The position numbers and the translations under genes were made by a program. The notes under the pieces are model-generated. The model made no database searches. It was not told the origin of the DNA and saw only the letters and a list, made by a program, of their open reading frames with translations. From assembly GCA_016223105.1 (NCBI GenBank), contig JACRPR010000036.1, positions 1,729 to 65,728 on the forward strand: a DNA stretch of 64,000 nt, in the 5' to 3' direction. This document shows positions 8,807-51,959 of the stretch, piece by piece; the stretch's first letter is position 1, and each line of letters starts with the position of its first letter. The DNA comes from Chloroflexota bacterium (lineage in GTDB: Bacteria; Chloroflexota; Anaerolineae; UBA4142).

Positions 8807-8826
8807 GATCGCTTTTCAATTCCGAA

Positions 8827-9741: not shown

Positions 9742-9742
9742 G

Positions 9743-10393: not shown

Positions 10394-10415
10394 TGGAATT
10401 GATCTCAAATCAAAT

Positions 10416-10564
10416 GTAACTACTCAGCCCATGTCATTGCGAGCGGTTTTCCCTGGCACTTGCGTTCCCGCCAGGGCAAGTGTGCGAAGCAATCCCCGAC
10501 CTGGTCGATCCGGATTTGCAACGCGGGGATTGCTTCGTCGGCAAAAACCGCCTCCTCGCAATGA
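10416..10564. mobile_element. Repeat family 1 (MITE-like, GTCATTGCGAGCGG...CTCGCAATGAC core with GTAACCGTTCAG outer ends), copy truncated at one end, inside the kinase 3' end
   Basis: Near-identical to 40931-41095. The right end stops at ..CGCAATGA, without the CACCTGAACGGTTAC terminus seen in the other copies. Confidence 0.8.
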
Positions 10565-20190: not shown

Positions 20191-20232
20191 GAGACCTGGA
20201 AAGATTCTGAATCTTTCCAGGTCTCGTTTTTT
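20191..20232 (+). terminator. Rho-independent terminator (15-bp stem + T6)
   Basis: GAGACCTGGAAAGAT-TCTGA-ATCTTTCCAGGTCTC followed by GTTTTTT. Lies between convergent genes. Confidence 0.8.
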
Positions 20233-21379: not shown

Positions 21380-21386
21380 TTATGCT

Positions 21387-28531: not shown

Positions 28532-28754
28532 GGCAAAGGTATTGAATGGTTCGAGATGAATTTTATCCGGATCATCTTAACCGCGCTTCAAGTTCAGTTA
28601 AAGCCAGCACAAAATTTTGGTTAAGGTTTCTTAAACTCGCGGTGTCCACGAATGTCGAACGAATAACGAACAATCCGTTCCACAAACTTTCAATGCGTTT
28701 GTCCAACTTGCAGTTTGCTCATTGCGCGCTTTCGGTATATGATTGCGCCTACTT

Positions 28755-31700
28755 ATGCAACCGTTTCAAGAACCCCAAGCCATCACGCGCCCGATTGCGT
28801 TCGCGACCTTGATTCTCCTCATCACCGGTTTTATCGGAATTCAGATTCTACCCATTCCACTGGCACAGCGCGTTCCGCTCAACACACTGCTTCTCCTCGC
28901 CGGCATCATTGCGCTCGTGAGTTTACGCTTTCTCGCGCCGCGCCTTCTGCGCGCGCCCAGCGTCGTGCTGGCAACCATTTGCGCGTACGCGCTGATCATC
29001 GCGTACGCGGATTACTTGCTCACCCTGCTCGATCTTTCGCCCTTGTATGTGATCATCATCATCGTCGCCGCGGCGATTACAACGCGCTGGATGGCGCTGG
29101 TGAGCGCGCTCATCGTCGGCGCGATCCAAATGTTTGCCGGGCTGATCGCCGGCGAATCCATCGAACTCGGCTTTGCCTTGCGTTTGATAATTTATCTGCT
29201 CGCGGCATTTCTGATCGCGACCCTTTCCGCCGCGCTGACCGAATATTGGCGGCAAGCCGCGACGCAAGCGGAACAGCAACGCCAAGCCGTGGAACGCCGG
29301 CACGCCGAACTCGAATCGCTCCATCAAATTTCGCAGGCATTTGGAAATTTACATGATGTCGAAGCGACATTTCGCGAGGTAACGGAACGCACGGCGCGTT
29401 TGCTCGGCGCGGAAATTTGTTACTTGCAGCGGTTCGATGAAGTGGGTTCCTATTTATACGGAATGTCGCCGGGTTATGGCTTGAGCGATCAGCAAATCGC
29501 CGAATTGCAATTTCCGGTGGACGCGACGCTCGTCGCAGTGTGGAATGTCGAGCGAGACGATTATTTATTATTGCACAACCTCGCCCTCTTGCCGCCCCAG
29601 GTCGCGGATGCCGCGCGCGCGTTGAACATTCGCGAGTTGGTCGCGGCGCGGCTCGTCATTCGCGGGCGCGCGATGGGTTTAATCGTCGCGGCGAATCGCA
29701 TCGGCGGCGGCGCGTTTGAAGAAAAGGACGGTCGCTTGCTCAGCATCCTCGCGAGTCAAGCCGCGATCGCGGTGGAGAACGCGCGGCTCTATCGCGAAAC
29801 GCAAAATAATTTGGACGATGTAACGCGGCTCTATGCGATCAGCGCGGAATTGTTGGCGCACCTCGATCCCGAAAAAATTCCACACCGCGTCATTCAAGCC
29901 GTCGCCGATGTGCTCCACGCGCCGATCACCACCATCGCGCTCGTGAACGAAACCACCGAGCAACTCGAATTTGCCGCGTCCATCGGCGTGCCCGACCAGG
30001 TTCTGCAAATGTCCTTCCGTCCGAACGGATTGGGCATGAGCGTCGTGCGCGCCGGGCAAGCGCGCTTTATCGAAGACATTCAATCCGAATCAAACGCCAG
30101 CCCCGCGTCGCGCGTGATGAATTATCGCGCGGTCGCGTGCTTGCCGATTCAACACGGCGGCAAACCGATGGGCGCGCTCTACGTCAACTATGCCGACCCG
30201 CACCCCTTTACGCCCATCGAAAAAAATATGCTCGCGACGTTTGCGAACCAAGCCGCCATCGCGTTGGAGAACGCGCGCCTTTGGCGCGCCGAGCAACGCA
30301 AAACAATGGAACTCGCCGCGCTCGCCGACATCAGTCACTCGCTTGCCAAGACCATGGATCCGGAAGAAATGTTCCGCGTGATCGAACACCAGGTGCGCGC
30401 GCATATTCCCGGCGCGGACGCGGGCGCGTTATTGGTGTACGATCCGCAAACCGATATGCTGATCCCACGCGCCGATTTCGGCTTCGACCGCGACCTGATT
30501 CGCCGCGTCGCCCTGCGCCCCGGCGAATCAATGTCGGGGCAGGCATTTCAGTTCAAGCGCGCCATGATTTTTCGCGGGCAGGACGCGATGCGCGCCGCGC
30601 GGCAAACGATGCAACCGGAAAATTTATCGCGCTTTGCGGCGGCATCGCACTATGCCGCGCATCCCCACAGCACGATCTGCGCGCCGTTGTATACCGGGGC
30701 TGAAGCCATCGGCGTCATCGCGCTGAATAATTTTAGATCGGCGGACGGTTTTTCGGATGACGATTTGAAATTGTTGGAGGCAATGGCGGATCGCGCCGCG
30801 GTCGCGATTCACAACGCGCGCTTGTACGCGGAGGAAACCCGCCGCAACGCGCAACTGTCCGTGGTGAACGATCTCGGGCATCGCATTACTTCGATTTTAG
30901 ATCTGAACGAACTCGCGTGGACGTTGACGCATTTAATTCGCACCACATTCGGTTTTCGGTACACGCATCTCTTTACGGTCGTTCCCGCCGCGCGCCAAGT
31001 CATCCTCCTCGCCGGCGCAAGCCCGCGCGCGAGCCGTCTCGCCATCACTGGATTCGCGTTGGAATTCGGGCGCGGGATGGTGGGCTGGGTCGCCGAACAT
31101 GGCGAGTCGCTTCTCGCGAATGATGTCACGCGCGAAGCGCGCTTTATGTTCAACCAGCACGTCGCCGACACGCGCGCGGAACTCGCGGTGCCGTTGAAAA
31201 TCGGCGCGCGCACGATTGGCGTGCTTGACGTGCAAAGCGAACAGCTCAACGCGTTCGATCCCAGTGATGTCGTAACGATGGAAACGCTCGCAAGCCAGAT
31301 CGCGATTGCGATGGAAAACGCGCGCTTGTACGGCGAACTCGAAGAACAGGCGCGGCGCGATAGTTTGACCCAGGTGTACAATCACGGTTATTTCGCGAAA
31401 CGTTTGGCGGAGGAAGTGAGTCACGCGCTCCGCACCGCAAGTTCGCTCGCGTTGATTATGCTCGACATTGATTATTTCAAACCGTACAATGATCGGTACG
31501 GTCATCTGATCGGGGATGCAGTCCTGTGGGAAACGGTGCAGGCGATTCGCGCGCACGTCAAGCAATCCGATTTTGTCGGACGCTGGGGCGGCGAGGAATT
31601 TGGGATCGCGTTGCCCGGCGCGGATCTTGATCAAGCGTGCGCCGTCGCCGAACGGATCCGCGCGACTCTGCGCGCCGCGCAATTGCCGCTCAAGGACGGC

Positions 31701-31874
31701 GCGCCCATCGAGCCGCCGTCGGTGAGTCAAGGGATCGCGATTTGTCCCGCGCACGCGCAAGACACCTGGCAATTGATCGGGCGCGCGGATGCCGCGCTCT
31801 ATCGCGCCAAGTCGCGCGGGCGCGACCAGGTTTGTGTTGCGGATGAAAACGCGCGTGGACATTCTACCGCGTAA
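28755..31874 (+). CDS. Membrane-anchored multi-GAF diguanylate cyclase (GGDEF)
   Basis: N-terminal ~6 TM helices, about four GAF-like repeats (recurring AAIA(L/V/M)ENARLY ends), and a C-terminal GGDEF domain (LDIDYFKPYNDRYGHLIGD, RWGGEEFGI). The ORF opens at TTG 28743; the first ATG is 28755. Confidence 0.85.
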   Translation: MQPFQEPQAITRPIAFATLILLITGFIGIQILPIPLAQRVPLNTLLLLAGIIALVSLRFLAPRLLRAPSVVLATICAYALIIAYADYLLTLLDLSPLYVIIIIVAAAITTRWMALVSALIVGAIQMFAGLIAGESIELGFALRLIIYLLAAFLIATLSAALTEYWRQAATQAEQQRQAVERRHAELESLHQISQAFGNLHDVEATFREVTERTARLLGAEICYLQRFDEVGSYLYGMSPGYGLSDQQIAELQFPVDATLVAVWNVERDDYLLLHNLALLPPQVADAARALNIRELVAARLVIRGRAMGLIVAANRIGGGAFEEKDGRLLSILASQAAIAVENARLYRETQNNLDDVTRLYAISAELLAHLDPEKIPHRVIQAVADVLHAPITTIALVNETTEQLEFAASIGVPDQVLQMSFRPNGLGMSVVRAGQARFIEDIQSESNASPASRVMNYRAVACLPIQHGGKPMGALYVNYADPHPFTPIEKNMLATFANQAAIALENARLWRAEQRKTMELAALADISHSLAKTMDPEEMFRVIEHQVRAHIPGADAGALLVYDPQTDMLIPRADFGFDRDLIRRVALRPGESMSGQAFQFKRAMIFRGQDAMRAARQTMQPENLSRFAAASHYAAHPHSTICAPLYTGAEAIGVIALNNFRSADGFSDDDLKLLEAMADRAAVAIHNARLYAEETRRNAQLSVVNDLGHRITSILDLNELAWTLTHLIRTTFGFRYTHLFTVVPAARQVILLAGASPRASRLAITGFALEFGRGMVGWVAEHGESLLANDVTREARFMFNQHVADTRAELAVPLKIGARTIGVLDVQSEQLNAFDPSDVVTMETLASQIAIAMENARLYGELEEQARRDSLTQVYNHGYFAKRLAEEVSHALRTASSLALIMLDIDYFKPYNDRYGHLIGDAVLWETVQAIRAHVKQSDFVGRWGGEEFGIALPGADLDQACAVAERIRATLRAAQLPLKDGAPIEPPSVSQGIAICPAHAQDTWQLIGRADAALYRAKSRGRDQVCVADENARGHSTA

Positions 31875-31921: not shown

Positions 31922-33775
31922 CTACTGAATCTCGATTCGTGCAAGCACAATGCGATCCGCGTTGTTTGGTTGACCCAGGATCACAAGTCGTTGCATCGTG
32001 GCGAGATCATACACACCAATTTCCAATCTATAATCCTGGCTCGGTGCAACTGTCTCTTCAATTGGAATCACAAAATAATCCACGCTTGCTTCACCAGGAC
32101 GCCACGCACTCGTCGGCGCAGTACCATTGCGCGGTTGCTGGTCTACGCCGCCAACTATTTCGCCCTGGGCATTGACGAGATGGGCGAACACAGTGTAATC
32201 GCGATCCATTTTTCGATCCGCGCGCCAATACAATAAAAACACCAATGCTTGCCCGCGCTCGGCAGACGGCGTGAACAAATCATAGCCCTCTAACCGGATC
32301 GCGTCCTCAAAAATCGTCGGTAGCGGCGGCGCGTTCGCGATCCCGCGCGCGCGCTTGAATTGCGCCTCGCTCGATTTGCCCTGAGCATCGAAATAGTACA
32401 CCAATACGTTTTCGTATCGCTCCAGATTCACGCGCTGATTATAACGCGTGCCGGTGATGTGGAGCGCGTTGCCATACTGCAGGGTAAACATCCCCGATAA
32501 ATAATCTTCGCTCGTGGGCGGAGCAATAAAATAAAGAAGCGTGCCGGGTGGAAAGGTCGGATGGTTGCGCGAAATCTCGCGAAAGGGTCCGCGTTCAAAA
32601 CGCGCTTGCGCCGCATACTGATTCGCCGTGTTCGCCACGCCGGGAACATTGAATCCCAGGATCGCGGCGCAGGCGAGACCGGCAAATGCGCCGCGCGCCC
32701 AAGCGGATCGAAAAAATTCCGTGCCGCGTTCGACGATGAGCGCGAGCAAAACCGCCGGCACTACTCCAGCCAAATACAAATGGCGCGCATCAAAAACTTG
32801 CCATTGAAACGAAAGCACATGCAACATTCCGAGGATGGCTTCGATTCCAAAAAACGCGAGCACTCGATTTTTGGTGCGGAGGAGGATGAGCAGGTACGCG
32901 CCGCTCGCCAGCGCGACCCAGATTTGTGGATTCGGAATTTCGATGCGCCACGGCACGATGAGCCAGGACAGGTACGGAATCGCGTTGGTGATGACATGCC
33001 ATCCCAGCGCGGGGCGATACGTTTGATAAAGCGGATTCGCCGGCATAATCAAACGCACAAACGCGAGATAGACCCCGGCAATGAGCGCCAAGCCCAAATA
33101 ACGCCGCACCAGGTCTGTCCATTTGAGCGGCGCGCGCACGATTAGCCGATCCAACAAAAATAATGTCGCGGGCAAGGTGAGCGCGATTTCTTTGGTAAGT
33201 AATCCAAAACCAAATACGATCAGGGTGAGTCGCGCATCGCGCGCCTTGCCGTGGCGCAAATAGCGCGCCCACAACCAGGTCGCCAGCAAATAAAACGTCG
33301 TCGCCAAAACATCCGGCGCGTTGATGAGCATCACCGTGAGACTGTACGCGGGCAGACTCGCGTAGAACAAACCCGCGATCAATGCCAAGCGCGCATTGCG
33401 CGCGATCTGCCAGCAGATCATGCTCACGAGCAACGCGTTCACAAAATGCATCGCGAGATTGACCGCGTGAAACGCCACGGGGTTGAATCCAAATCCCCCA
33501 TAGGTCATCACGTACAGCAGACCCTGGAACGGGCGATACGAATTCAACAAATAGGGACCGAACGGATTCAGCACGGCGGTCAGATAATCTGTCGCGCCCA
33601 GCCGACTCAGCGTGCCAAAATAACTCCAATCATCCGAAATAAAAGTCAGGTTCAGCGCGGGCAAGTATGCCATGATCGTAACCGCCAAAATCGCGACGAT
33701 GCCGACGAGAACGATCGGCGCCGATGGTTTGAAATGGGGTTGCACAGAGTTGCTCATCAGATTCCTAACGCGCAA
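31922..33775 (-). CDS. Polytopic membrane protein, GT-C fold glycosyltransferase-like (ArnT/PMT_2-like) with soluble C-terminal domain
   Basis: More than 10 TM helices, acidic FISDDW in the first loop, ~200-aa non-membrane C-terminus. Family assignment is tentative. Confidence 0.5.
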   Translation of the reverse strand: MRVRNLMSNSVQPHFKPSAPIVLVGIVAILAVTIMAYLPALNLTFISDDWSYFGTLSRLGATDYLTAVLNPFGPYLLNSYRPFQGLLYVMTYGGFGFNPVAFHAVNLAMHFVNALLVSMICWQIARNARLALIAGLFYASLPAYSLTVMLINAPDVLATTFYLLATWLWARYLRHGKARDARLTLIVFGFGLLTKEIALTLPATLFLLDRLIVRAPLKWTDLVRRYLGLALIAGVYLAFVRLIMPANPLYQTYRPALGWHVITNAIPYLSWLIVPWRIEIPNPQIWVALASGAYLLILLRTKNRVLAFFGIEAILGMLHVLSFQWQVFDARHLYLAGVVPAVLLALIVERGTEFFRSAWARGAFAGLACAAILGFNVPGVANTANQYAAQARFERGPFREISRNHPTFPPGTLLYFIAPPTSEDYLSGMFTLQYGNALHITGTRYNQRVNLERYENVLVYYFDAQGKSSEAQFKRARGIANAPPLPTIFEDAIRLEGYDLFTPSAERGQALVFLLYWRADRKMDRDYTVFAHLVNAQGEIVGGVDQQPRNGTAPTSAWRPGEASVDYFVIPIEETVAPSQDYRLEIGVYDLATMQRLVILGQPNNADRIVLARIEIQ

Positions 33776-33805: not shown

Positions 33806-34213
33806 TTACTGTGTTCCGATCAATCGCCGGTGTAGTTTCATCATACACTTGTCCATCACCACTTTTAATCCTGCCGCCTCTGCTGTGCGCGCGGCATCCG
33901 CGTTCACGATCCCTTCTTGCATCCATACGACGCGCGCGCCAATTTGGATCGCCTGCTCCACAATCGGCGGCACATCTTCTGCGCGCCGGAAAATTTGCAC
34001 AACCTCCACTTTTTCCGGGATCGCGCGCAAATCGGGATACGATTTTTCGCCGTTGATTTCGGACACGGTCGGATTGACCGGGATCACGCGATAACCCTGG
34101 GTTGCCAAATACTCGGGCACATAGTACGCCGGTTTTTCAAAACTGGTCGAGTAGCCCACGGTCGCGATGGTGTGAATCGTTTCGAGAATGGTTCGAATTT
34201 CGTCGTCGGTCAT
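33806..34213 (-). CDS. CoA-binding domain protein (YccU/YneT-like)
   Basis: Start ATG 34213 (MTDDEIRTILETIHTIATVGYS); YRVIPVNP, VQIFRRAEDVPPIV, WMQEG. Confidence 0.75.
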   Translation of the reverse strand: MTDDEIRTILETIHTIATVGYSTSFEKPAYYVPEYLATQGYRVIPVNPTVSEINGEKSYPDLRAIPEKVEVVQIFRRAEDVPPIVEQAIQIGARVVWMQEGIVNADAARTAEAAGLKVVMDKCMMKLHRRLIGTQ

Positions 34214-34226
34214 TGTAATCCTTGTT

Positions 34227-34273
34227 GGGCAAATTTCCAATTTGCCGCCATTGGGCAAATTGGAAATTTGCCC
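34227..34273 (-). terminator. 20-bp perfect hairpin immediately after the kinase stop codon
   Basis: GGGCAAATTTCCAATTTGCC-GCCATT-GGGCAAATTGGAAATTTGCCC. No clear U-tract, so it may be a stabiliser or partial terminator. Confidence 0.5.
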
Positions 34274-35664
34274 TACGCGCTCAATTGGATCGGCAGTTCG
34301 ATGTGAAACGTCGTCTCCCCCGGCATCGAGGCGATGCGAATTTGTCCGCGATGTTTTTGAATAATGTTGTACGTGATGTTCAAGCCAAGTCCCGTGCCGA
34401 CGCCTGGCGCTTTCGTCGTAAAAAACGGATCGAAAATGCGCGATTGAATTTCCGGCGGAATGCCCGGACCGTTATCCGTGATTTCGACGACGATACATTT
34501 TTCGTCCTTGCGAAACGTTTTGATTTTGATTTCGCCCGCGCCTTGCATCGCGTCAATCGCATTATCCAAAATGTTCGTCCAGACCTGGTTGAGTTCGCTC
34601 CCATACGCTTCGATGTGTGGCAGATCGGTCGCGTACGCGCGCGTAACCGTAACACCCTGCTTGAGTTTACTGCGTAAAATGACAAGCGTGTTTTCCAAAC
34701 CCTCGTGGATGTCCACCTGTTGAATCGGCGCTTGATCGAGAAACGCGTACGATTTTACCGCCTTGACGATTTCGGAAATCCGCTCCGCGCCCATATTTAC
34801 TTCGGCGAGCAACGCGTAAATGTTGCACCCCACGCACAACCAGCGCGCGACAATCGCAAACTGCGGCGCGGAAAATTCCGCGCGCAATTTTTCGAGATCG
34901 TTCGCATCCCAACCGAACGCGACCAACACCGGCGCAATGTCCCACGCGTCCTCAATCGCGCGATCTTCGAGCCAGGTTTGCATTTCACTTTCGCGATCAC
35001 TGCGCGCGAGCGGCGCGATTTGCGGCGGCGCGGACACGCGCCGGGTCATTTCATCGCGCAACGCGGTAACACGTTCGTTCTGCCGCGCGTCCAAACCGAG
35101 CGCGCCGAGTGTGATCGTGAGCGACTGCCATTCCGCGAGCGCGTCGCGCAGTTGCGCGCTCGAACGGCGCGCCGCCGCCGCTGGGTTATTCAACTCGTGC
35201 GCGAGCCCAGCGGAGAGCGTGCCGAGCGATGCCATCTTTTCATTTTGCCGGATCATTTGCTCAGTGTTCCGCAAACGATTCATCACCGTTCGCAAAATCG
35301 AAAGCGTTGCCGCCGGACGCGTCATCACCAATTCTTCGAAAACTTGTTTGCTGACTTTGAACAACAAACTGTCCACGCGCGCGTGCACCGACGCCGTGCG
35401 CGGGCGATTTTCCAGCACGGACATTTCGCCGAACATTTCGCCGACGCCGCGGATCGCGATCACGATCTCGGTGTTGCCCGCGCGTTTCGTCACTTCAAAC
35501 TCGCCGTCGAGGACGAGAAAAATCGCGTCGCCCGGCGTGCCTTCTTCCATCAAGACCGCGCCTTTGGGGACGGTGATCGTTTCCGCCATTTGCGCGAGCC
35601 AGTCTACATCTTTTTCGGACAAGCCGGCAAAGAGGAGTTGTTGTCGAATCAGTTCTTGGTTCAT
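34273..35664 (-). CDS. Soluble cyclic-nucleotide-binding histidine kinase (cNMP-binding / HisKA / HATPase)
   Basis: Start ATG 35664 (MNQELIRQQLLFAGL). Phosphate-binding cassette FGEMSVLENRPRTASVHA, H-box GLAHELNNPAAA, DNGPGIPPEIQSRIFDPFFTTK..GTGLGL. No TM segment and no adjacent regulator. Confidence 0.82.
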   Translation of the reverse strand: MNQELIRQQLLFAGLSEKDVDWLAQMAETITVPKGAVLMEEGTPGDAIFLVLDGEFEVTKRAGNTEIVIAIRGVGEMFGEMSVLENRPRTASVHARVDSLLFKVSKQVFEELVMTRPAATLSILRTVMNRLRNTEQMIRQNEKMASLGTLSAGLAHELNNPAAAARRSSAQLRDALAEWQSLTITLGALGLDARQNERVTALRDEMTRRVSAPPQIAPLARSDRESEMQTWLEDRAIEDAWDIAPVLVAFGWDANDLEKLRAEFSAPQFAIVARWLCVGCNIYALLAEVNMGAERISEIVKAVKSYAFLDQAPIQQVDIHEGLENTLVILRSKLKQGVTVTRAYATDLPHIEAYGSELNQVWTNILDNAIDAMQGAGEIKIKTFRKDEKCIVVEITDNGPGIPPEIQSRIFDPFFTTKAPGVGTGLGLNITYNIIQKHRGQIRIASMPGETTFHIELPIQLSA

Positions 35665-35724
35665 TTTAGTATGTGGTATTCGGTTTGAGATCGGGTGATT
35701 GTTGCGCCAACGCGTCAAACTGCG

Positions 35725-35795
35725 GCACGGGCTTTCCTGCCCGCATCAGCGGCTTGGATAAGCCGTCCCACAGTTAATTTCAAAACGCTTTCTTA
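35725..35795. repeat. Repeat family 4
   Basis: GCACGGGCTTTCCTGCCCGC-ATCA-GCGGCTTGGATAAGCCG-TCCCACAGTTAATTTCAAAACGCTTTCTTAG. Closely matches 24351-24420. Confidence 0.8.
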
Positions 35796-37538
35796 GCGCA
35801 TGATGAGCGGTAAAAACAGATACCCTGTGTCAGCACCCGGCACGTACTCAACTGCGCCGATCTCGCAGGCAAGTCCGGCAAGTCGTGCCACGCCACGCTG
35901 GTCGGTCGTGATACCGCCGATGCACTGTCCATTGTCAATCGCCTGGCTTGGTGGGAAGAGCATGTGCGTTTGGGTTGCCCCGCCGTTATTCGCCAGTGGG
36001 AGAAGTAGCGGATCGGTGCTGTTCCAATCGCTGGGCTGATTGAAATACGCGGCGCATGAATTGTCACTGGAAAGATTGTATCCGAGTGATGTAACCGTGC
36101 CATTGCAATTGCCATTCGATGAATGGCTAACAATCGTATTTTTCAGGTTGATCGTTCCACCGTTTTTCCAAATGCCGCCGCCCTGAAACGCCGAGTTGCC
36201 CTCGAGCGTTACATGCCGCAGTGTTACGGTCGCGGCACCGACTGGACTCAACCAGATTCCGCCACCGAACCCTCCCGAATTTCCGCTGAACGTTACATTC
36301 GTCATCGTCAGCGTTCCGCCACTCATCCCGACGCCTCCGCCGTGATCGCTGTAATTGTTCATGAACGTAACTCGATCCACAGTGACCGCGCCCGGCGCAA
36401 CTACATCCAGCGCGCCGCCGTAGGTGGCAGAATTTCGGGCGAACGTGCTGTCGGCGATGGTGGTGGGACCTTTCGCAAAGATGCCGCCTCCACCATTGAT
36501 GCCATCGTTATCATCAAAACTGCTATTCGCGACGTTCAGCGTTCCTTCGCTGTAGATAGCGCCACCGAAACCAGAACAGGGTCCGAACGTCGTTCTATTC
36601 TGTGCAAAGACGCTACCAATAACCGTTGCGCTACCGCTCGCCGCGTTGTGAATGGTGTTGCCACAATCGCCGCGACTATTGGCAAGTGTGGCGGACGAGA
36701 GTTCGAGCACTCCATCGCTGTAAATGCTACCGCCGACGCCATTCAGCGAGCGATTGCCAAGCAGGGTGCTATTCTGAATGACCATGCGGACATTGTTGTA
36801 GAGTCCGCCCCCGTCAAGGTTTGCCGTGTTGCTAAAGATCCGGGAATTGGTGATCGTTACCACGCCGGCACTGCCGACACCGCCCACGTCCAGAGTTATG
36901 GCTGTGTTGCTATAAACGAGCGTGTCCGTTAGGATCAGATATTGTCCAAAGTCGCAGATGCCACCACAAGTACGATTGGCGGAGTTGTAGCGGATCGTAC
37001 TGCTTGTAAGCGTCGCGCGACCGGCTGTGTTATTGACGATCGCGCCACCGTCAAGCCCAGAATAACACTTTTCGACGATGGTGTTGTACAAATTGAGCAC
37101 GCCGCCATCATTCAGGATACAACCGCCAATTTCACTGCCGCCCACCGTTCCGTTGCTCAGAGTAATGTTCTGGAGCGTCAGATTGCCGAGGAAATTCCCC
37201 GCCGAAAACACATAGAAGATGCGCGTGTTGTTCGCGCCGCTGAGTGTAATCTTATTTGCGCCGTCAATGATTACACTCTCTCCACCCCCCACCGTCAAAC
37301 CGCCTGGTGTAGTGATGATGATGATCGCGGGGGCGGCACCGCAATTGAACGTGACCAGTCCGCCGCCTGACATCGCGTTAGCAAGCGCCTGCGACGTGCA
37401 AGATTGCGGCGTACCGTTGCCAACGATACCGCCCGCTTGAGTTGGCGATACATTCGTGAGTCCAGACCAAAAGATCAATGCAAATCCAAGCATGAAGGTG
37501 CAACAACGCAGGAGCCAAAGGTAAGGTGTTGCACACAT
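35793..37538 (-). CDS. Secreted right-handed parallel beta-helix repeat protein (Pmp-like GGxI repeats)
   Basis: N-terminal hydrophobic signal; many repeats of GG(A/G)I(Y/W/F)..G.L.(L/I).N(S/T).. ; C-terminal DQRGVAR...CEIGAVEY. Confidence 0.7.
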   Translation of the reverse strand: MCATPYLWLLRCCTFMLGFALIFWSGLTNVSPTQAGGIVGNGTPQSCTSQALANAMSGGGLVTFNCGAAPAIIIITTPGGLTVGGGESVIIDGANKITLSGANNTRIFYVFSAGNFLGNLTLQNITLSNGTVGGSEIGGCILNDGGVLNLYNTIVEKCYSGLDGGAIVNNTAGRATLTSSTIRYNSANRTCGGICDFGQYLILTDTLVYSNTAITLDVGGVGSAGVVTITNSRIFSNTANLDGGGLYNNVRMVIQNSTLLGNRSLNGVGGSIYSDGVLELSSATLANSRGDCGNTIHNAASGSATVIGSVFAQNRTTFGPCSGFGGAIYSEGTLNVANSSFDDNDGINGGGGIFAKGPTTIADSTFARNSATYGGALDVVAPGAVTVDRVTFMNNYSDHGGGVGMSGGTLTMTNVTFSGNSGGFGGGIWLSPVGAATVTLRHVTLEGNSAFQGGGIWKNGGTINLKNTIVSHSSNGNCNGTVTSLGYNLSSDNSCAAYFNQPSDWNSTDPLLLPLANNGGATQTHMLFPPSQAIDNGQCIGGITTDQRGVARLAGLACEIGAVEYVPGADTGYLFLPLIMR

Positions 37539-37568
37539 AGCGATTCCACTTCCAGTTCTAGTACCCGA

Positions 37569-39215
37569 CTACAACGTACTCAGGTATTGCTGAATCGCCG
37601 CGATCGCGACACCGCCTTCGCCGGTCGCGTGCGCGACGCGATTGTTCGTGCCAAAGCGCACATCGCCCGCGGCGAAAATTCCCGGACAACTTGTTTCGAG
37701 AATGTACGGATCGCGATCCAACATCCATCCTTTCGGACGTTTGCCGCCGCGCACCAGGTCGGGACCGGTGATGATGAATCCCTTGTCCGTCGTCTCGACC
37801 AGGTCGCGCACGAGTTCGCTGTTCGGCATCGCGCCGATGAAAATAAACATCGCCGCCGCGGGAACCGTTTGCGTTTCGCCGGTCTTGCTATTCTTGATCG
37901 TCAACGCTTCGAGTTTTCCCGGCGTGCCGTGAAGCGCGATCACCTCGGTATTAAACAGCCGCTCGATTTTTGGATTCGCTTCTTCCGCGTCGCGCAGATA
38001 TTTCGACGACCATTGCGAATCGCGGCGAATCAACATCGTGACCTGGCTCGCGAATCGCGACAAGAACATCGCGCCCTGCCCCGCCGAATTCGCGCCGCCG
38101 ATTACAAAGACCGGTTGATCGCGATAGTACGTCGCTTCGGTGAATGCCGCGCCGTAATACACGCCCGCGCCGGTCATTGCATCAATACCCGGCACATCGA
38201 GTCGGCGAAACGTCGCGCCGCTCGCCATCAACAACGTTTTGCCGACGATCTCGGATCCGTCCGCAAGTGTAACGATCCGATACTTGTCTTCGACGCGCAC
38301 GCGCACCGCTTCAGTCGCTTCGAGAATTTCCGCACCAAAGCGTTTGGCTTGCGTGATCGCGCGCCGCGCGAGATCCATTCCCGATACGCCGGAAGGAAAG
38401 CCGAGATAATTTTCGATCTTGGGACTGTTCCCGGCTTGACCGCCTGGGACGCCGCGCTCCAACACGACGACGCTCTGCCCCTCCGACCCGGCATACACCG
38501 CCGCCGACAAGCCGGCGGGACCCGCGCCAATCGCGATGATGTCGTACAATTTTGTTTCCGCGCGCGTTTGCATTCCAACTTTCGCGGCGAGTTCTTGCAG
38601 TGATGGCTCAACTAAAATCGCGCCATCGGGAAACACAACGACCGGCAATTTTTTGTGCGTGTCCGCGAGCGCGCGCGCGGTTTCGTCCTTGTCCACATCG
38701 AGCCACTGGTACGAAATCAAATGGCGCGCGAGAAAATCCTTGACTGTGTGCGAGTGCGGCGACCACAACGCGCCCGCGACGCGAATCCCTTCGAACGGCA
38801 ATTTCACATTCGCTTTCCACTCGTCGAGCAAATCGTCCAACACGGGATACAAATTTTCTTGCGGCGGATCCCAGGGCTTCATCAAATAATAATCGAGTCC
38901 GATCTGATTGATGGATTGGATCGCGGCTTGTGTGTCCGCGTACGCGGTGAGCAAAACTTTTTTCGCGTCCGGGAAAAGCGCGCGCGCCTGATCGAGAAAA
39001 TCGGTGCCGCTCATTTGCGGCATCCGTTGATCCACGAGCAACAGCGCAACGGTTTCCGCGCGCGCTTGCAATTGTTTGAGCGCGTCGAGCGCGACCGATC
39101 CGGCGTCGGCTTTGAGGATGCGATAATCGCGTCCATATTTTTGCCGCAGATCGCGTTCGACCGCGTTCAACACGGCGGGTTCGTCGTCGAGCGTGAGTAT
39201 AACTGGCTTGGGCAT
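37569..39215 (-). CDS. Receiver domain / Grx-like fold / thioredoxin-reductase-like flavoprotein fusion lacking both redox CxxC motifs
   Basis: ATG 39215 after AAGGAGAGGAA. REC VILTLDDEPAVL..LLLVDQRMPQMSG. Middle domain has WSPHS where W-C-x-x-C is expected. FAD IIAIGAGPAGLSAAVYA; NAD(P)H VIGGANSAGQGA; GIFAAGDVR. The TrxR C-A-T-C position reads AAFT. Confidence 0.85.
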   Translation of the reverse strand: MPKPVILTLDDEPAVLNAVERDLRQKYGRDYRILKADAGSVALDALKQLQARAETVALLLVDQRMPQMSGTDFLDQARALFPDAKKVLLTAYADTQAAIQSINQIGLDYYLMKPWDPPQENLYPVLDDLLDEWKANVKLPFEGIRVAGALWSPHSHTVKDFLARHLISYQWLDVDKDETARALADTHKKLPVVVFPDGAILVEPSLQELAAKVGMQTRAETKLYDIIAIGAGPAGLSAAVYAGSEGQSVVVLERGVPGGQAGNSPKIENYLGFPSGVSGMDLARRAITQAKRFGAEILEATEAVRVRVEDKYRIVTLADGSEIVGKTLLMASGATFRRLDVPGIDAMTGAGVYYGAAFTEATYYRDQPVFVIGGANSAGQGAMFLSRFASQVTMLIRRDSQWSSKYLRDAEEANPKIERLFNTEVIALHGTPGKLEALTIKNSKTGETQTVPAAAMFIFIGAMPNSELVRDLVETTDKGFIITGPDLVRGGKRPKGWMLDRDPYILETSCPGIFAAGDVRFGTNNRVAHATGEGGVAIAAIQQYLSTL

Positions 39216-41173: not shown

Positions 41174-41941
41174 TTAGTCGGTCGAATGGGCGTTGATGAA
41201 ATTGATGACGCGCGTCCACGCGTCGGCGGATTCGTTCGCAAACTCAACAAACTTGCGATCAAAAAAACTGTGCGGCGCGCCGGGATACGAAACGATTTCG
41301 TGCGCGACGCCGGCACGCGCGAGTTGCGCGTCGAGTTGTTGTACATCGCTTGCCGGAATTCCTGGGTCTGCGCCCCCGAACAAGCCCAGCACCGGGTAAC
41401 GATTTTTCCCGGCTTGTTCGAGCGTCGTCCCTTTTGCGCCGGCGACCGCGCGACTCAACCCGGCGTAAAACGCGATGATGCCCGCGAGATCGAATGTCTC
41501 CGCGCCGGTGTGCAAGCCGAGCGTGCCGCCGCGACAAAAGCCGACGATGAACGTCGCGCGCGGCGATTGGCTCAACAAACGCAAATGCGCGAGCGCGGCA
41601 TTCACATCAGCGAGAAAAGTTGGCACCGTCATTTTTTCGACGTGCGGTTGCCACTCGAAGGATTCATCGCGCGCGGTGAGACCGGCGGTGCGTCCGAAAT
41701 AATCAATCGCGAGCGCGCGGATTCCGATTTCGGCAAAGCGCAACGCGAGTTCTTTGTAAAATTGATGCAAGCCGCGAATGTCCGGGTAAATCAACACTTG
41801 CGCGCCGCTCGGTTGCGCCGAGTACGCGATGTACGCGGAAAACCGGTTTCCGTCCGGCGCGGTCAAGACCAGGTCGTTCCCATCCGCCGCGCCGCCGGAA
41901 ATCGGCGGATACGGCGGGCGCGCGGTATCATCGTAACACAT
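41174..41941 (-). CDS. Dienelactone hydrolase-family alpha/beta hydrolase
   Basis: GFCRGG nucleophile motif, LGLFGGADPGIP, APHSFFD. AGGAG 9 nt upstream. Only 13 nt after the upstream gene. Confidence 0.8.
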   Translation of the reverse strand: MCYDDTARPPYPPISGGAADGNDLVLTAPDGNRFSAYIAYSAQPSGAQVLIYPDIRGLHQFYKELALRFAEIGIRALAIDYFGRTAGLTARDESFEWQPHVEKMTVPTFLADVNAALAHLRLLSQSPRATFIVGFCRGGTLGLHTGAETFDLAGIIAFYAGLSRAVAGAKGTTLEQAGKNRYPVLGLFGGADPGIPASDVQQLDAQLARAGVAHEIVSYPGAPHSFFDRKFVEFANESADAWTRVINFINAHSTD

Positions 41942-41954
41942 TGTTTGTTGCTCC

Positions 41955-43697
41955 TTATTTCAAAACAGATTTCACATCCGGCACATTCAAAAACGATGCG
42001 CGCAAATCCTGGGGAGTGTGATCGGCGATGTATTCGATGATTGCGCGCGCGTGCGTTCGCAACGCGCGCGCGCGCGTCGAATCAGTTTCCATTTCCGCGA
42101 GCGCGGCAAGGATGCGCCACCAAATCCATCGCGCATTTGTGTCTTCGGCTTCGACGCGCGCCGCGTTTAGTATCATCATCGCTTCGTTCGTGTTGCCACT
42201 CTTGCACAAGGCGATTCCTTTGATGTACAACGCGTTAGGCAAATCCTGACGCAAGCGATGCGAGTGCTTGTATTCGATGAACCGATCACACGCGGCAATC
42301 GCGCGCGGGTAATCATTTTGCGCGAGCATCAATTCGGCTTCGGCTAAAATGTTTGCCGCGCCAAAGAGCGATTCGTGATCGGTCGGGGTGATCGTTTCAG
42401 TCGCTTCAGCGATGTACGTAGCCGCGCGCGCGATCTGCCCATCGCGCAAATACAAATGCCCGAGTTGCGCCGCCGTCCAAATGACCATCACTTGCGCTTG
42501 ATTCCTCCCGGCGCGATACGCGAGTTCCGCAAGCTCGATGCCACGCGCGATCATTCCCAGGTCGCCGTACAACGCGCCCAGGTCGGCGCGCGTAAACGCG
42601 AGCGGCGCTTGAAAACCGCTCACGGCTGTACGAATCGCGTCCTCCATCGAAGTAATCGCTTGCGCGACATGTCCGATGGCGCGATATGCTTCACCCACCC
42701 AACTTTGACTGAACGCTTGACCCCACACATTGCCGATGCTCAAACTGAGCGCATACGCTTCTTCCGCCGCCGCAATCGCGTCTTGATACCGGGCGAGCGC
42801 GATATAAATCATCGCGGCATAACTCAAATTGTCCGCGATCATCGGCGCGATGTTCATCTCACGCCACATTTGCCGCGCTTGCAAATTCAGTTCGATGCCG
42901 CGTTCGGGATCAATGGCATACGCGTACGGCAAACTGAGATCGTTGAGCAAGTACGCGATTTGTTCGCGCAATTCGAGTTTGCGCGCGATCGCGAGCGCTT
43001 GTTCGCCATACCCGATCGCGTGGCGATAATTCGTTCGCAAACGCGTATTGAGCAGTAAAAGATTCCACAGAATTTTTGCTTCCGCCGGTTGATCGCCAAT
43101 CGCGCGCGCGAGTTCCAACGCTTGATCGCACAACGTTTGCGCGAGTTGGCGATCCGATTGTTTGCTGGGAATCGAATAGATCGTCGCGCGCGCCATCAAT
43201 GCCGCGAGTTCCATCGCGCGGTCGCCACATTCGCGCGCGCGCGTTTCCATTTCGGCATAGAGCGTCAGCGCGCGGTCGTGCTGATCACTCAATTCGTACA
43301 GTCGTCCCAGTTTGAGTTGCAAATCTTGCGGATGCGCGCCGGCACGTTGCGCGCGATCGAGCGCGCGCGTGTAATGCGCGATCGCTTCGACATTCGCGTT
43401 CACGCGCGCGGCGACATCGCCGGCGCGCATCAAGTACTCGCGCGTTTTCGCGTCGTCGCCGGATTCGGCGTAATGTTGCGCGAGCAATGCGGCGTGCTCG
43501 TCCAAATTCTCCGCGTACAGTTGTTCGTACGCGTGCGCGACGCAGAGATGAATTTCGCGGCGTTGTTTTTGCAGTAACGAGTTGCGCGCGTTTTCCTGCG
43601 TGAGCGCGTGCTTGAAAATGTACGCCATCTCTTCTTCGGGGAGACGGCGCACGAGTTGCGCGTGTTCGAGTTGATTGAGCGGTGAAACCAGATTCAT
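41955..43697 (-). CDS. Stand-alone winged-helix-like + TPR module (paralogue D)
   Basis: Start ATG 43697 (MNLVSPLNQLEHAQLVRRL..YIFKHALTQENARNSLLQKQRREIHL). Very similar to 47982-49784 (AALLAQHY.E.GDDAKT...RAGDVAARV). Confidence 0.7.
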   Translation of the reverse strand: MNLVSPLNQLEHAQLVRRLPEEEMAYIFKHALTQENARNSLLQKQRREIHLCVAHAYEQLYAENLDEHAALLAQHYAESGDDAKTREYLMRAGDVAARVNANVEAIAHYTRALDRAQRAGAHPQDLQLKLGRLYELSDQHDRALTLYAEMETRARECGDRAMELAALMARATIYSIPSKQSDRQLAQTLCDQALELARAIGDQPAEAKILWNLLLLNTRLRTNYRHAIGYGEQALAIARKLELREQIAYLLNDLSLPYAYAIDPERGIELNLQARQMWREMNIAPMIADNLSYAAMIYIALARYQDAIAAAEEAYALSLSIGNVWGQAFSQSWVGEAYRAIGHVAQAITSMEDAIRTAVSGFQAPLAFTRADLGALYGDLGMIARGIELAELAYRAGRNQAQVMVIWTAAQLGHLYLRDGQIARAATYIAEATETITPTDHESLFGAANILAEAELMLAQNDYPRAIAACDRFIEYKHSHRLRQDLPNALYIKGIALCKSGNTNEAMMILNAARVEAEDTNARWIWWRILAALAEMETDSTRARALRTHARAIIEYIADHTPQDLRASFLNVPDVKSVLK

Positions 43698-43705
43698 TGC
43701 ACGAC

Positions 43706-44026
43706 CTAGAAAATTTTTTTGAGCCAGTACGTGATCGCCACGTTCGCCGTGATGAAAACGCAAAAGACGATGCCCGACGCGACCGCGCTGTACAACAATT
43801 CGCGCGTCGTGTCCCAAACGGTGCCGGGCAAATCACCGCGATAATAATTGAACAGATTAAACACGAAAATATACGCGGCGACGCCGAGCGGCGGAATCGG
43901 CAAAAAGAAGCGAATGTTTTCGGAAACGGAATTTCGAAACAGATAGAGCAAGACGCCGGTCAACAACATCAAGAATCCCGCCACGGTAATCGTCAAAATG
44001 TTGACCTTGAGCATTTCGTCGTCCAT
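43706..44026 (-). CDS. Small 3-TM membrane protein (106 aa), unknown function
   Basis: ATG 44026 (MDDEMLKVNILTITVAGFLMLLTGVLLYLF) with AGAGGA 5 nt upstream. Its stop lies 8 nt before the start of paralogue D. Confidence 0.5.
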   Translation of the reverse strand: MDDEMLKVNILTITVAGFLMLLTGVLLYLFRNSVSENIRFFLPIPPLGVAAYIFVFNLFNYYRGDLPGTVWDTTRELLYSAVASGIVFCVFITANVAITYWLKKIF

Positions 44027-44812: not shown

Positions 44813-47800
44813 TCAGGTCTCGCCTACGCGCTCGCGCGTGTAACGGCGTTCCAGATCGCGCCACCGTGCTTCCGTCGTCAGCACTTCGTCCCAGCGATCC
44901 AAACGAAACAAGCAATGACTCTGAATCCCAATCGCATTCACCTGTTGATCAGTCGCTTGAATCCGCGCGGCGAGCGTTTCCGCTTCGGTCAAGTACGGCA
45001 GGGCTTGATCGTATTCGCCGAAATACATCAACGCGACGCCGACCCCGCGCAACGCGTCAATGCTTTCACGCGCGTCGTCAAAATTTCCGGCGCGACAGAG
45101 TTCCAAGCGCCGCGTCGCGACTTGCAAATGTTCGCGCAGTAAACTCCGCCCGTCGAACACATTCGCGAGCGCGCCCAATGCTTTCGACAACGCGACGCCG
45201 TCGTCGAGTTGCTCCGCCATTTGCACCGCGCGTTGCGCCAAGCGATGCGCGCTGTCCCAATCCGGCGGCGTTTGATTGCGCCACGCGTCCATCGAAAGCG
45301 CGACGAGCAATTGCACCGTTTCCGTGTGCGGCGGTTCGTTGCCATTCGTTACGATGTTTTCTTCGAGCCACGCGCGCGACTCATTGCGGATTTCGCTGAC
45401 CTGTTGATACGCCGTCGCGTCCACCGACCATTTCGCGTCGGTCGCGATTTGAACGATTTTGCGATGCAAACGCACCGCGATAATTTTATCGCTCGCGCCA
45501 TCGCGCGCGCGCGCGAGCGCTTGTTGATACAACGCGAGCGCTTGCGCGAAATCGCGCACGAGCCGATACACATCGCCCAGGTCTTCGAGCAAACCCAGTT
45601 GCAATTCAATTGCCGTTTCCGGCGCGATCAACGCGAGCGCCTTGCGTAAATTTTGAATCGCGTCGTCATACGCATACACCGCGACCGCTTGTTGCGCCGC
45701 GTGCCGCGCATACGTGATCGCCTTGTCGCGTTCGCCCGCTTGCGCGAAATGGTACGCCAGCAAACCGGCGAGTCCCTCCAAGCGATTCGGAAAAAGCATT
45801 TCCATCGCTTGACCGACGCGGCGATGAAACGCGCGGCGGCGTTTCAACAAAATCGTTTTGTAAACCGCTTCCTGGGTCAGCGGATTGCGAAACGCGTATT
45901 CGAGTTCCGGCACGCGCGCCGATTCGCGAATCATATCCAACCGAATCAACGTGCCGATGTGCTTGTCCAAATCCTGGCTCGCCTCATCCACAAGTTGCAG
46001 AACGCGCCGATAAAACGAGCGACCAATCACCGACGCGATTTGCAGTGTCGCGCGCGTTGATTCTTCGAGCCGATCCATACGCGCCGCGAGAAGCGATTGC
46101 AAATTATCTGGGATTTCAAAATCCGCGCCCGCGTTCGTCGCGCGCCAATAGCGGCGCGTGGTTCCATTCACGACGCGATCTTCGGACACGACCGCGCCGC
46201 TATCAATTAACGTTCGCACCACTTCTTCGATGAAAAATGGATTGCCGCCGGATTTTTCGAGAATGTTCGCGCGCAAACGATCCGGCAATTCGGCAACCGC
46301 GAGCAAGCGATTCAACAGTTCGTTGCTCTCCGCTTCCGAAAGCGGACGCAATGCGACTTCGGTATACCGATGCTGATACTCTTCGTCGGCAATGATTTTG
46401 ATTTGCCACGCGGGGGCTTGGCGTTCGGTTCGCAGAGCGCACAAAACGACGAGCGGAATTTCTTCGGTCAACGCGACCAGTTGCCGAAGCATCTCGACCG
46501 ACGCGGCATCGCACCAGTGCAGATCATCAAAAACCAGGACGGTCGGTTGATTCGCAAAGCGCGCGCGCATCCAATCGCGCACCGCTTCGCACAATTCGCG
46601 TTTGAACATTTCGCCGTCGAGCGGCGCATTTCCGTTTTGGCTCTCCAAGCCGAACAACGATTCGAAAAGTTGCAACGCGCGCGCGCGCCGATCCTCCGCT
46701 AAACATTCGACGAGCGCGCCGAGTTTCGCGCGCATCGCTTCGGGCGCGTCCTCCGCGCCGATGCCATTCACGCGCCGAATCAAACGCTGAATCAATCCGT
46801 ACGCCTGATTGGATTCGTACGAGAGTGTGAGCGTTTCGTGCCATTGCGCGTTCAGCCCTTCGAGACTTTTGAAAACCAGGAAGGTTTCGTGCAGTAATCG
46901 CGTCTTGCCCAAACCGGCTTCGCCCAACACACAAACGATTCGCCCCACCCCTTGTTTGAGATCGGTGATGACGCCGCGCAACGTAATCAATTCCGCATCC
47001 CGCCCCACCATCTCCGCGTGCAAACCTTCGATCCCGCGCATGCGGCTCGCGCTTTCTTTGCGCCCCAGGACGCGATACGCCGGCACAGGTTCGGTCTTGC
47101 CCTTGACCTCGATGCCGCCAAGATTTTCAAATTCAAAAAATGATTTGACCTGTTTGTGCGTATCGTGCGCGATTTGCACCGTGCCAGGCGCCGCGGTATG
47201 TTCCATCCGCGCGGCGAGATTGATCGCGTCGCCAAGCGCGAGATATTCCATGTGCATATCACTGCCGATGTTGCCAACAACGACAAGCCCGGTGTTGAGT
47301 CCGATTCGCATTTGAAAATCGGGAACGCGATTCTTGGCGCGCAGTTCGTTGCGATATTCGCCAATCTGTTTGAGGATGTCGAGCGCGGCGTTCACCGCGC
47401 GCACCGGGTCGTCCTCGTGCGTGATCGGCGCGCCGAAAAATGCAAGCACGCCGTCGCCAAGCAGTTGCGCGATCGTGCCTTCGTACCGATAGATCGCTTC
47501 GCTCACGCGGCGATGCGCGCCCGAAACAATTTCGCCCCACTCTTCGGGATCGAGTTTTTCCGCGAGCGCGGTCGAGCCAACAATGTCGCTGAACAACACG
47601 GTAACTTGTTTGCGCTCGCCGACCATATCGCCGCTCGCGCGCGCGGCGTCGAGTTTCGCGCGCAATTCTTCGGGAATGTACTGTTGCAGTTTCGATTCGG
47701 CTAAAACCGGAATCGGCGCGATCGCGATCGGCGCGCGCGGTTCGACACTGGGTTTGGGTGGCGGCGCGATCTCAACGCGCGGTAGCGCGCTGGGCGCGGT

Positions 47801-49958: not shown

Positions 49959-50010
49959 CACGCATCACGCATCACGCATCACGTTTTACGTTTTACGTTT
50001 TACGTTTCAC
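49959..50010. repeat. Tandem heptamers (CACGCAT)3 (CACGTTT)(TACGTTT)3, containing the stop of the B N-terminal half
   Basis: Read directly from the sequence. Confidence 0.9.
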
Positions 50011-51920: not shown

Positions 51921-51959
51921 ATTACGTAATACGTGTTGTGTATTGCGTATTACGTTTTA
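51921..51959. repeat. Heptamer-type array TACGTAA TACGTGT TGTGTAT TGCGTAT TACGTTT between paralogues A and B
   Basis: Read directly from the sequence. Includes the stop of A. Confidence 0.75.

Follow-up and report, generated by a model that had tools for sequence, protein, structure and literature searches.

Two neighboring genes in a 64,000-nt stretch of a Chloroflexota genome (Anaerolineae; UBA4142; assembly GCA_016223105.1, contig JACRPR010000036.1, positions 1,729 to 65,728), referred to here as the window, encode a soluble histidine kinase with a cyclic nucleotide-binding (CNB) domain and a response regulator in which a receiver (REC) is fused to a glutaredoxin-like (Grx) domain and a thioredoxin reductase-like (TrxR) flavoprotein. 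On the basis of gene neighborhoods conserved across many bacterial phyla, the two are very probably a cognate two-component pair. The flavoprotein of the regulator has lost the catalytic cysteines of its relatives, and an array of nucleotide cyclases encoded upstream is, by a small margin, our favored source of the signal that the kinase would perceive. An earlier note on this DNA had proposed a relay running from the cyclases through the kinase to the flavoprotein. The open reading frames (ORFs) that it gave for the kinase and the receiver protein were confirmed on the same (minus) strand, as were the CNB module with an intact phosphate-binding cassette in the kinase and the N-terminal receiver fused to a flavoprotein in the regulator. 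The principal features are as follows.

37569 to 39215, minus strand: response regulator REC-Grx-TrxR, 548 amino acids (aa) (Pfam, NCBIfam, alignments, AlphaFold2 [AF2], Foldseek)
39030 to 39032, minus strand: codon of D62, the receiver aspartate predicted to accept the phosphoryl group (family alignment)
35793 to 37538, minus strand: secreted beta-helix protein, an inserted passenger gene (NCBIfam NF041518, 3.4e-21)
34273 to 35664, minus strand: soluble histidine kinase, 463 aa (Pfam, alignments including CckA 5idj, AF2)
35380 to 35433, minus strand: phosphate-binding cassette FGEMSVLENRPRTASVHA, kinase residues 78 to 95 (read from the sequence and compared over 71 family kinases)
35197 to 35199, minus strand: codon of H156, at which autophosphorylation is predicted (unchanged in 61 family members; aligns to the CckA H-box)
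34834 to 35169, minus strand: family-specific helical insert at the hairpin of the dimerization and histidine phosphotransfer (DHp) domain, residues 166 to 277 (family alignments, AF2)

The pairing was examined from both partners. An alignment search with the regulator, run over contigs from one genome per species, yielded 80 loci, of which 73 had enough flanking sequence to be evaluated. A kinase of the same family, insert included, adjoined the regulator in 66 of the 73, on the regulator's strand in all but one of these (65 of the 66) and often overlapping it or lying less than 30 nt away. When the kinase was the seed, REC-Grx-TrxR was next door in approximately 25 of 27 full-length kinase loci, which included Actinomycetota (Nocardia, Streptomyces, and Actinoplanes among them), Bacteroidota, Verrucomicrobiota, and Caballeronia; in the same search, the regulator was never beside kinases that have the same H-box and lack the insert. 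Two layouts recurred. In Chloroflexota, Cyanobacteria, and Ktedonobacteria, the regulator is followed by a CNB-type kinase, while in Gammaproteobacteria, Gemmatimonadota, Desulfuromonadales, Nitrospirota, and others the regulator is immediately preceded by a REC-PAS-PAS kinase that has the same core. The taxa with the pair comprise Chloroflexota, Cyanobacteria, Actinomycetota, Bacteroidota, Gemmatimonadota, Proteobacteria, and other phyla, and adjacency was kept in both search directions over at least 8 phyla. The other receivers in the window each lie beside a kinase of their own. The earlier description of the two proteins as an orphan kinase and an orphan receiver without a cognate partner must therefore be abandoned in view of the 66 and approximately 25 adjacent loci, and the same conserved neighborhoods uphold the proposed link from kinase to receiver.

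In the window, the two genes are 1.9 kb apart with the beta-helix gene between them, as had been noted, but this does not represent the native state of the pair. In the closest relative, locus L164, which has a regulator that is 96% identical, the order is dienelactone hydrolase (DLH), tetratricopeptide repeat (TPR) protein, regulator, and kinase; the last two are separated by 74 nt, and there is no beta-helix gene. Nor was a beta-helix gene found between regulator and kinase in any of the 80 regulator-seeded loci. Because the L164 pair is uninterrupted, the gene, whose product has a signal peptide, a choice-of-anchor Q domain, and PMP repeats (NCBIfam), is a recent strain-specific insertion that split the pair. 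It was also considered as a component of the system and rejected, being absent from L164 and all other loci. Both of its junctions are spanned by unitigs in three groundwater metagenome runs, and so the arrangement is not an assembly artifact. Similar small insertions occur in cyanobacterial loci, such as a PIN toxin gene in L065. The intergenic sequences that flank the beta-helix gene are unrelated to the 74-nt spacer of L164, which itself contains an inverted repeat.

The distance and the unrelated intervening gene could be taken to mean that the genes are unrelated neighbors, the proximity of kinase, receiver, and cyclases being coincidental, or that the pair is decaying after the insertion. 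The insertion may indeed have changed co-transcription of the pair, a scan for promoters and terminators found nothing above background, and the sequencing runs that hold the sequence are DNA only, with no RNA runs; these points speak against an intact relay in this organism. Set against them, both frames are intact, the closest kinase homologs found are 91 to 92% identical, the regulator is nearly the same protein as that of the uninterrupted L164 pair, and adjacency is conserved from either starting point across phyla. The comparative data largely refute coincidence or decay, which we regard as highly improbable.

The regulator matched Pfam Response_reg (4.6e-14) and Pyr_redox_2 (7e-32). It consists of a receiver (residues 1 to 136), a glutaredoxin-like domain (approximately 144 to 212), and a thioredoxin reductase-like part with sites for flavin adenine dinucleotide (FAD) and NAD(P)H (223 to 548); a mycoredoxin-like stretch at residues 151 to 219 of the 554-aa ORF that was scanned corresponds to approximately 145 to 213 in the 548-aa numbering. 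Residues D10, D11, D62, T90, and K113 of the receiver do not vary among 18 family members, and the domain is predicted to be catalytically competent. The active site of the Grx-like domain reads WSPHSH (family consensus, WSPxSH), which contains no cysteine and has neither a CPxC nor a CxxS motif, and the sole glutaredoxin-type match of the protein was a weak one to TIGR02200, under the cutoff. The TrxR-like part is approximately 40% identical to the TrxB proteins of Bacillus cereus and Staphylococcus aureus (E value of 1e-55), and its score against NCBIfam TRX_reduct was 232 bits, below the cutoff of 343. Where the B. cereus enzyme (7aaw) has GVSYCAVCDG, the regulator has GVYYGAAFTEA, and the redox-active CxxC is gone. 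No invariant cysteine was present anywhere in the family alignment of the regulator. Because every catalytic cysteine is absent, the protein is predicted to be incapable of acting as either a thioredoxin reductase or a glutaredoxin reductase.

The cofactor sites, on the other hand, are kept. Residues G230/G232/G235, G373/N376/A378, and G517/D518 are invariant in the regulator family, and the glycine motifs for FAD and NAD(P)H remain so even across a 107-member alignment of diverse relatives. The AF2 model of the regulator is of high confidence (predicted local distance difference test [pLDDT] of 94.8; predicted template modeling score [pTM] of 0.86). The best superpositions of its flavoprotein part were with thioredoxin reductases in the flavin-reducing (FR) conformation (5mh4; template modeling [TM] score of 0.95), and the top Foldseek matches were low-Mr thioredoxin reductases; thioredoxin reductases also headed the phmmer matches. 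The earlier proposal that the output is a redox enzyme was too simple, given the loss of the cysteines.

One way to read this combination is that the Grx/TrxR-like module is noncatalytic, a flavin- or NAD(P)H-binding sensor or scaffold that integrates redox state with the kinase signal, possibly via the kinase insert, and that its output is a protein-protein interaction. The loss of both CxxC centers and the lack of any invariant cysteine would fit such a role, as would the position of the kinase insert at the regulator-docking end of the DHp domain and the combination of the module with several sensor domains (REC, CNB, and EF-hand). Clustering of 795 neighboring ORFs from 91 loci, moreover, gave no conserved substrate gene beside the pair, which counts against an enzymatic output. 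However, the mean column identity of the flavoprotein is 81%, and not only its FAD and NAD(P)H motifs but also many surface loops are invariant in the family alignment, a degree of conservation typical of active enzymes. Dithiol-free enzymes with the TrxR fold are also known to be catalytic, an example being the TrxR-type ferredoxin-NADP reductases (3ab1, 3lzw, and 5ygq), although these match the regulator at only 1e-13 to 1e-15, compared with 1e-55 for thioredoxin reductases. We consider a sensor or scaffold unlikely, and we give a catalytic output without thiols an even chance.

When the Grx-TrxR module alone was searched against representatives clustered at 50% identity, it was found behind several different N termini, namely, receivers, CNB domains, an EF-hand pair, SnoaL domains, or nothing, the last in proteins of approximately 410 aa. 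The module therefore behaves as an effector that is switched by many sensors. CNB domains were fused to it in 32 of 85 long representatives (Pfam). A "Rosetta stone" argument from these CNB-Grx-TrxR fusions was considered and is weakened, since most of the fused CNB domains are without the cassette arginine. One protein, P0245 (714 aa), has the arrangement REC-Grx-TrxR-CNB with a canonical PRTAS cassette in its CNB domain, and phospho-control and control by a cyclic nucleoside monophosphate (cNMP) are thereby joined on a single flavoprotein.

The kinase matched Pfam cNMP_binding (2.2e-19) and HATPase_c (1e-25), and its ATG at 35664 agrees with the start of the L164 ortholog. A CNB domain (approximately residues 28 to 135) is followed by a long signaling helix that continues into DHp helix 1, then by the insert (166 to 277), DHp helix 2, and a catalytic and ATP-binding (CA) domain (315 to 458). 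The best PDB matches of residues 4 to 135 were PKG, PKA-R, and CRP-family proteins. The cassette, FGEMSVLENRPRTAS, is canonical, with its Gly-Glu and Arg-Thr-Ala elements intact, and binding of a cyclic nucleotide is predicted from it. The H-box, AHELNNP, contains H156, which is invariant in 61 family sequences, and aligns to the H-box of CckA (5idj). The CA boxes are likewise conserved in the family alignment (N364/N368, DNGPGI, FFTTK, and GTGLGL), the H-box histidine and the ATPase-domain motifs being invariant in the kinase family.

The DHp domain of the kinase is atypical. Compared with CckA (5idj), it is not a compact two-helix hairpin, since the helical insert places approximately 110 residues between helices 1 and 2, and the Pfam HisKA model gave no score on the kinase. 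In the AF2 model (pLDDT of 84.6), the insert is all-helical (pLDDT of 90 to 96), and a single unbroken helix, residues 117 to 188, leads out of the last part of the CNB domain and includes H156. The insert has been conserved in the kinases found with the regulator, whether of the CNB type or the REC-PAS type. It was apparently not covered by any solved structure among the top 50 Foldseek PDB matches of the kinase model; these were ordinary DHp-CA or CNB chains with low whole-model TM scores, and all were shorter than the model except for a 611-residue integrative WalK model. This helical cap, located where the regulator would dock on the DHp domain, is found only in kinases partnered with REC-Grx-TrxR. 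Its probable role is to increase partner specificity or, alternatively, to contact the flavoprotein.

A WLCVGC motif, containing a CxxC, occupies kinase residues 274 to 279 at the start of DHp helix 2 (window positions 34834 to 34845, minus strand). Its CVGC (residues 276 to 279) was considered as the missing dithiol for the cysteine-less flavoprotein and was rejected, since it was found only in the window kinase and its closest relatives (P0122, P0126, P0140, and P0141) and is not family-wide.

Upstream of the pair lies the array of cyclases. The order in the direction of transcription is cyclase/STAND/TPR array (55612 to 41955), DLH gene, MalT-type TPR gene, regulator, beta-helix gene, kinase, and CoA_binding_2 gene, with the array, regulator, beta-helix gene, kinase, and CoA-binding gene all called as ORFs on the minus strand. 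Both genes of the pair are downstream of the array, as first described, with the correction that the regulator precedes the kinase on the coding strand. The array is composed of the following genes.

51950 to 55612, minus strand: cyclase paralog A, zinc ribbon, class III cyclase, AAA_16 STAND ATPase, and TPR, 1220 aa (ORF and translation)
50007 to 51635, minus strand: N-terminal half of cyclase paralog B, cyclase and STAND ATPase (ORF)
47982 to 49784, minus strand: stand-alone TPR sensor module, the C-terminal half of paralog B (ORF)
44813 to 47974, minus strand: cyclase paralog C, zinc ribbon, class III cyclase, STAND ATPase, and TPR (alignment to CyaB and Cya2)
41955 to 43817, minus strand: stand-alone TPR protein (Pfam TPR_12 and other TPR families)

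Homologs of the paralog A family flank the kinase-regulator pair in other Chloroflexota loci. The N-terminal half of paralog B was used as a search query and recovered cyclases that adjoin the pair in other loci, while stand-alone TPR genes comparable to its C-terminal half are directly upstream of the regulator in L003, L004, L005, and L016. In paralog C, the two metal-binding aspartates and the transition-state asparagine and arginine are present, FSDIVGST, LLGDG, and AINLAARME aligning with CyaB and Cya2. Window-family cyclase-STAND-TPR genes directly precede the pair, in the same orientation, in L003, L004, L005, L015, L016, L033, L041, and L055; they are downstream of it in L007 and L037 and convergent with it in L083. 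In all, three cyclase architectures were seen beside the pair: Zn-ribbon-cyclase-AAA_16-TPR, cyclase-NB-ARC-TPR (L058 and L084), and Pkinase-cyclase-AAA_16 (L023).

Of 51 Chloroflexota loci with the pair, 14 had a nearby cyclase in an iterative profile search (16 ORFs in 836 kb), compared with none of 26 Chloroflexota control loci (363 kb) centered on a housekeeping pyridoxal phosphate (PLP) enzyme (Fisher P = 0.002), the control set being richer in Dehalococcoidia than the pair set. The cyclase-adjacent loci are scattered over several Chloroflexota subclades and require at least 9 gains or losses on the regulator tree. The cassette arginine, within the canonical pattern Gly-Glu ... Pro-Arg-Ser/Thr-Ala, was present in 29 loci, including 27 from Chloroflexota, mostly of the Anaerolineae type, and one from an Actinomycetota metagenome-assembled genome. 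Apart from the Actinomycetota locus, one Chloroflexota locus outside the Anaerolineae type also had the canonical cassette. A cyclase was in the locus in 12 of these 29, versus 3 of the 41 without the arginine (Fisher P = 9e-4), a contrast that is confounded by phylogeny, as is that between pair and control loci. The association between cyclases and the pair, as seen in these gene neighborhoods, is real but confined to Chloroflexota, and the proposed step from cyclase to kinase is moderately supported within this clade. Of the co-occurrence across genomes that the relay implies, the kinase and regulator are thus co-conserved over phyla, and the cyclases join them only in Chloroflexota; the proposed step from cyclase to kinase survives as a lineage-specific association that was not significant after phylogenetic correction, in a test that was underpowered (independent pairs of cassette versus cyclase adjacency, median P of 0.6).

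A possible, though less probable, alternative is that the pair is cognate and the adjacent cyclases are not its input. The CNB fold would then sense some other small molecule, or a cyclic nucleotide made elsewhere, and the adjacency would reflect the abundance and mobility of STAND-cyclase genes in large Chloroflexota genomes. Several findings, the corrected test included, weigh on this side and against the cyclases as input. A nearby cyclase is present in only about one-quarter of the pair loci from Chloroflexota. Kinases from cyanobacteria, Ktedonobacteria, Bacteroidota, and Gemmatimonadota, as well as most of those from actinomycetes, have a degenerate cassette, and since most kinases outside the clade and most CNB-Grx-TrxR fusions are without its arginine, the ancestral ligand of the CNB sensor may be neither cAMP nor cGMP. 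The product of the window cyclases cannot be predicted from their sequence, either. Canonical class III cyclases have Lys/Asp-Thr as the substrate-selecting pair for ATP and Glu/Cys-Gly for GTP. At these positions the window cyclases have Gln/Leu, which is neither of the canonical pairs, compared with Lys/Thr in Pseudomonas aeruginosa CyaB (3r5g) and Glu/Gly in Synechocystis Cya2 (2w01), and this is what makes the product unpredictable. Finally, the STAND neighbors of the pair in other phyla have protein kinase or LuxR effectors rather than cyclases, and the pair could be associated with STAND proteins as a class.

The alternative is disfavored by the fully canonical cassette of the window kinase, by the recruitment of three unrelated cyclase architectures at different positions, and by the complete absence of cyclases from the 363 kb of control sequence. 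Weighing both sides, we lean slightly toward the cyclases as the kinase input. STAND proteins (AAA_16-TPR) in which a Ser/Thr kinase or LuxR domain replaces the cyclase or is added to it were observed beside the pair in other lineages, at L049:3214-6798, L104:12810-16289, L099:9532-12663, and L023:5506-7401. Such neighbors with noncyclase effectors suggest a wider link between STAND proteins and this two-component pair.

With the cyclases as input, the chain would operate as follows. Engagement of their TPR sensors would lead the zinc-ribbon/cyclase/STAND/TPR proteins to produce a cyclic nucleotide, and the nucleotide would bind the canonical CNB cassette of the kinase. Because the C-terminal helix of the CNB domain is unbroken into DHp helix 1, a bound ligand would change how far the kinase favors autophosphorylation of H156 over phosphatase activity, by way of the continuous CNB/signaling/DHp-1 helix. 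The phosphoryl group would then pass from H156 to D62 of the regulator, and phosphorylation of the receiver would switch the cysteine-less FAD/NAD(P)H flavoprotein, probably via dimerization or a rotation of the FAD and NADPH domains. The flavoprotein, in turn, would move electrons from NAD(P)H to a non-disulfide acceptor. We judge the whole chain, from cyclase through kinase to flavoenzyme, to be evenly balanced between right and wrong.

A more ambitious version, which we consider rather improbable, is a complete three-tier chain of a kind not previously described in bacteria. It would consist of STAND-gated cyclases, possibly making a noncanonical nucleotide, a directly gated kinase, and, as the sole output of the kinase, a phospho-switched, thiol-free flavoenzyme with a new class of acceptor, and the helical cap would contact the flavoprotein so that the kinase reads its redox or NAD(P)H state. 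If true, this joint reading would describe a feedback-coupled second-messenger/redox switch. The Chloroflexota loci, the window included, provide the clearest hypothesis for the input of the pair, and it is one that can be tested with three purified proteins.

Three further genes accompany the pair and the array in the window.

41174 to 41941, minus strand: dienelactone hydrolase family protein (Pfam DLH, 4.8e-32), in the same position in L164
39289 to 40899, minus strand: stand-alone MalT-type TPR protein, immediately upstream of the regulator (Pfam TPR_MalT and TPR_12)
33806 to 34258, minus strand: CoA_binding_2 (YccU-like) small protein, 15 nt downstream of the kinase (Pfam PF13380, 1.8e-39)

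Orthologs of the MalT-type TPR protein are in the same position in L004 and L005 (58 to 63% identical) and also in L164. The CoA_binding_2 gene, which the earlier note did not list, follows the kinase in at least seven other Chloroflexota loci (L004, L007, L008, L013, L014, L016, and L165), and the operon may include it as an additional gene in this Chloroflexota clade. At the junction between the kinase and the CoA-binding gene (34222 to 34277), contigs of runs X1 and X4 have a variant with 11 other letters, which probably reflects co-existing strains in the groundwater samples. The recurrent neighbors of the pair were STAND/cyclase genes (15 loci), zf-UBP genes (7 loci), CoA_binding_2 genes (6 loci, or 8 when the window and L165 are counted), and glyoxalase genes (7 loci, cyanobacteria only). 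The zf-UBP genes encode small zinc-finger proteins of 84 to 124 aa and were beside the pair in L054, L055, L064, L068, L072, L101, and L107, from cyanobacteria, Chloroflexota, and Streptomyces; there is none beside the pair in the window.

In the region downstream of the cluster, a gene of opposite orientation (28743 to 31874, plus strand) encodes a membrane protein that combines four GAF domains with a GGDEF domain, and a PMT_2 glycosyltransferase gene (31922 to 33775) lies between it and the CoA-binding gene. A GAF/GGDEF-type gene is in the equivalent relative position in L165, which has a regulator that is 86% identical. Elsewhere in the window, two sCache-HAMP-GAF-HisKA_3 kinases (6983 to 8806 and 10420 to 12438) each lie beside a receiver ORF in the region from 6325 to 12438 (minus strand), and there is another kinase-regulator pair at 20231 to 22058 (minus strand). 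These are ordinary two-component pairs, and they indicate that the window is rich in signaling genes with partners of their own.

The pair is a catalogued but unstudied system. It is catalogued through an NCBI annotation label, and in the literature searched we found no functional study of the kinase-regulator pair and no study of a cNMP-gated histidine kinase. The regulator shares both architecture and family with the NCBI "fused response regulator/thioredoxin-disulfide reductase," which is exactly the name borne by the homolog P0041 and which we take to be the same as the "TrxB-type" response regulators of domain censuses. The name implies a disulfide reductase, and the missing CxxC rules that out. 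To identify the acceptor would be to give a function to a family that is misannotated as thioredoxin reductase.

The low-Mr TrxB proteins (B. cereus 7aaw, S. aureus 4gcm, and L. lactis 5mh4) have the same fold as the flavoprotein of the regulator (TM score of 0.95 to 5mh4) and are 30 to 40% identical to it, and the FAD motif GxGxxG, the NAD(P)H motif GGxNSA, and the GD motif are all kept. The regulator differs from them in having GAAFTEA in place of the CxxC, an extra loop of approximately 19 residues (483 to 509), an HRRxxxR NADPH motif that is only partly kept, and the fused N-terminal receiver and Grx-like domains. Among enzymatic response regulators, CheB, PleD/WspR, RpfG, and REC-PP2C proteins use the receiver to gate a fused catalytic domain and not a DNA-binding domain. 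Their outputs are a methylesterase, nucleotide cyclase, phosphodiesterase, or phosphatase, whereas that of the present regulator has the fold of a flavoprotein oxidoreductase.

The mycobacterial Rv0386-type cyclases combine a class III cyclase with a STAND ATPase and TPR/LuxR regions, and their substrate-selecting lysine is replaced by glutamine. The window cyclases resemble them in the fusion of the cyclase to an AAA_16/NB-ARC STAND ATPase and TPR and in having glutamine in place of lysine. They differ in the Gln/Leu pair, in the N-terminal zinc ribbon, in the absence of a helix-turn-helix domain, and in being split in some cases into separate ATPase and TPR genes. They are also linked to a CNB-domain kinase, while the Rv0386-type proteins are linked to a transcription factor.

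In bacteria, cyclic nucleotide signaling and two-component signaling are generally regarded as distinct systems, with transcription factors as their end points. The canonical CNB cassette of the kinase is shared with known cNMP-gated effectors, such as the regulatory domains of PKA and PKG, CRP/GlxR, and the cAMP-binding EAL protein Bd1971, but the effector to which it is joined here, unlike in any of those, is a His-Asp kinase. The system resembles the eukaryotic cNMP-gated kinases, with a canonical cNMP sensor that would be wired directly into a His-Asp relay with a flavoenzyme as its output.

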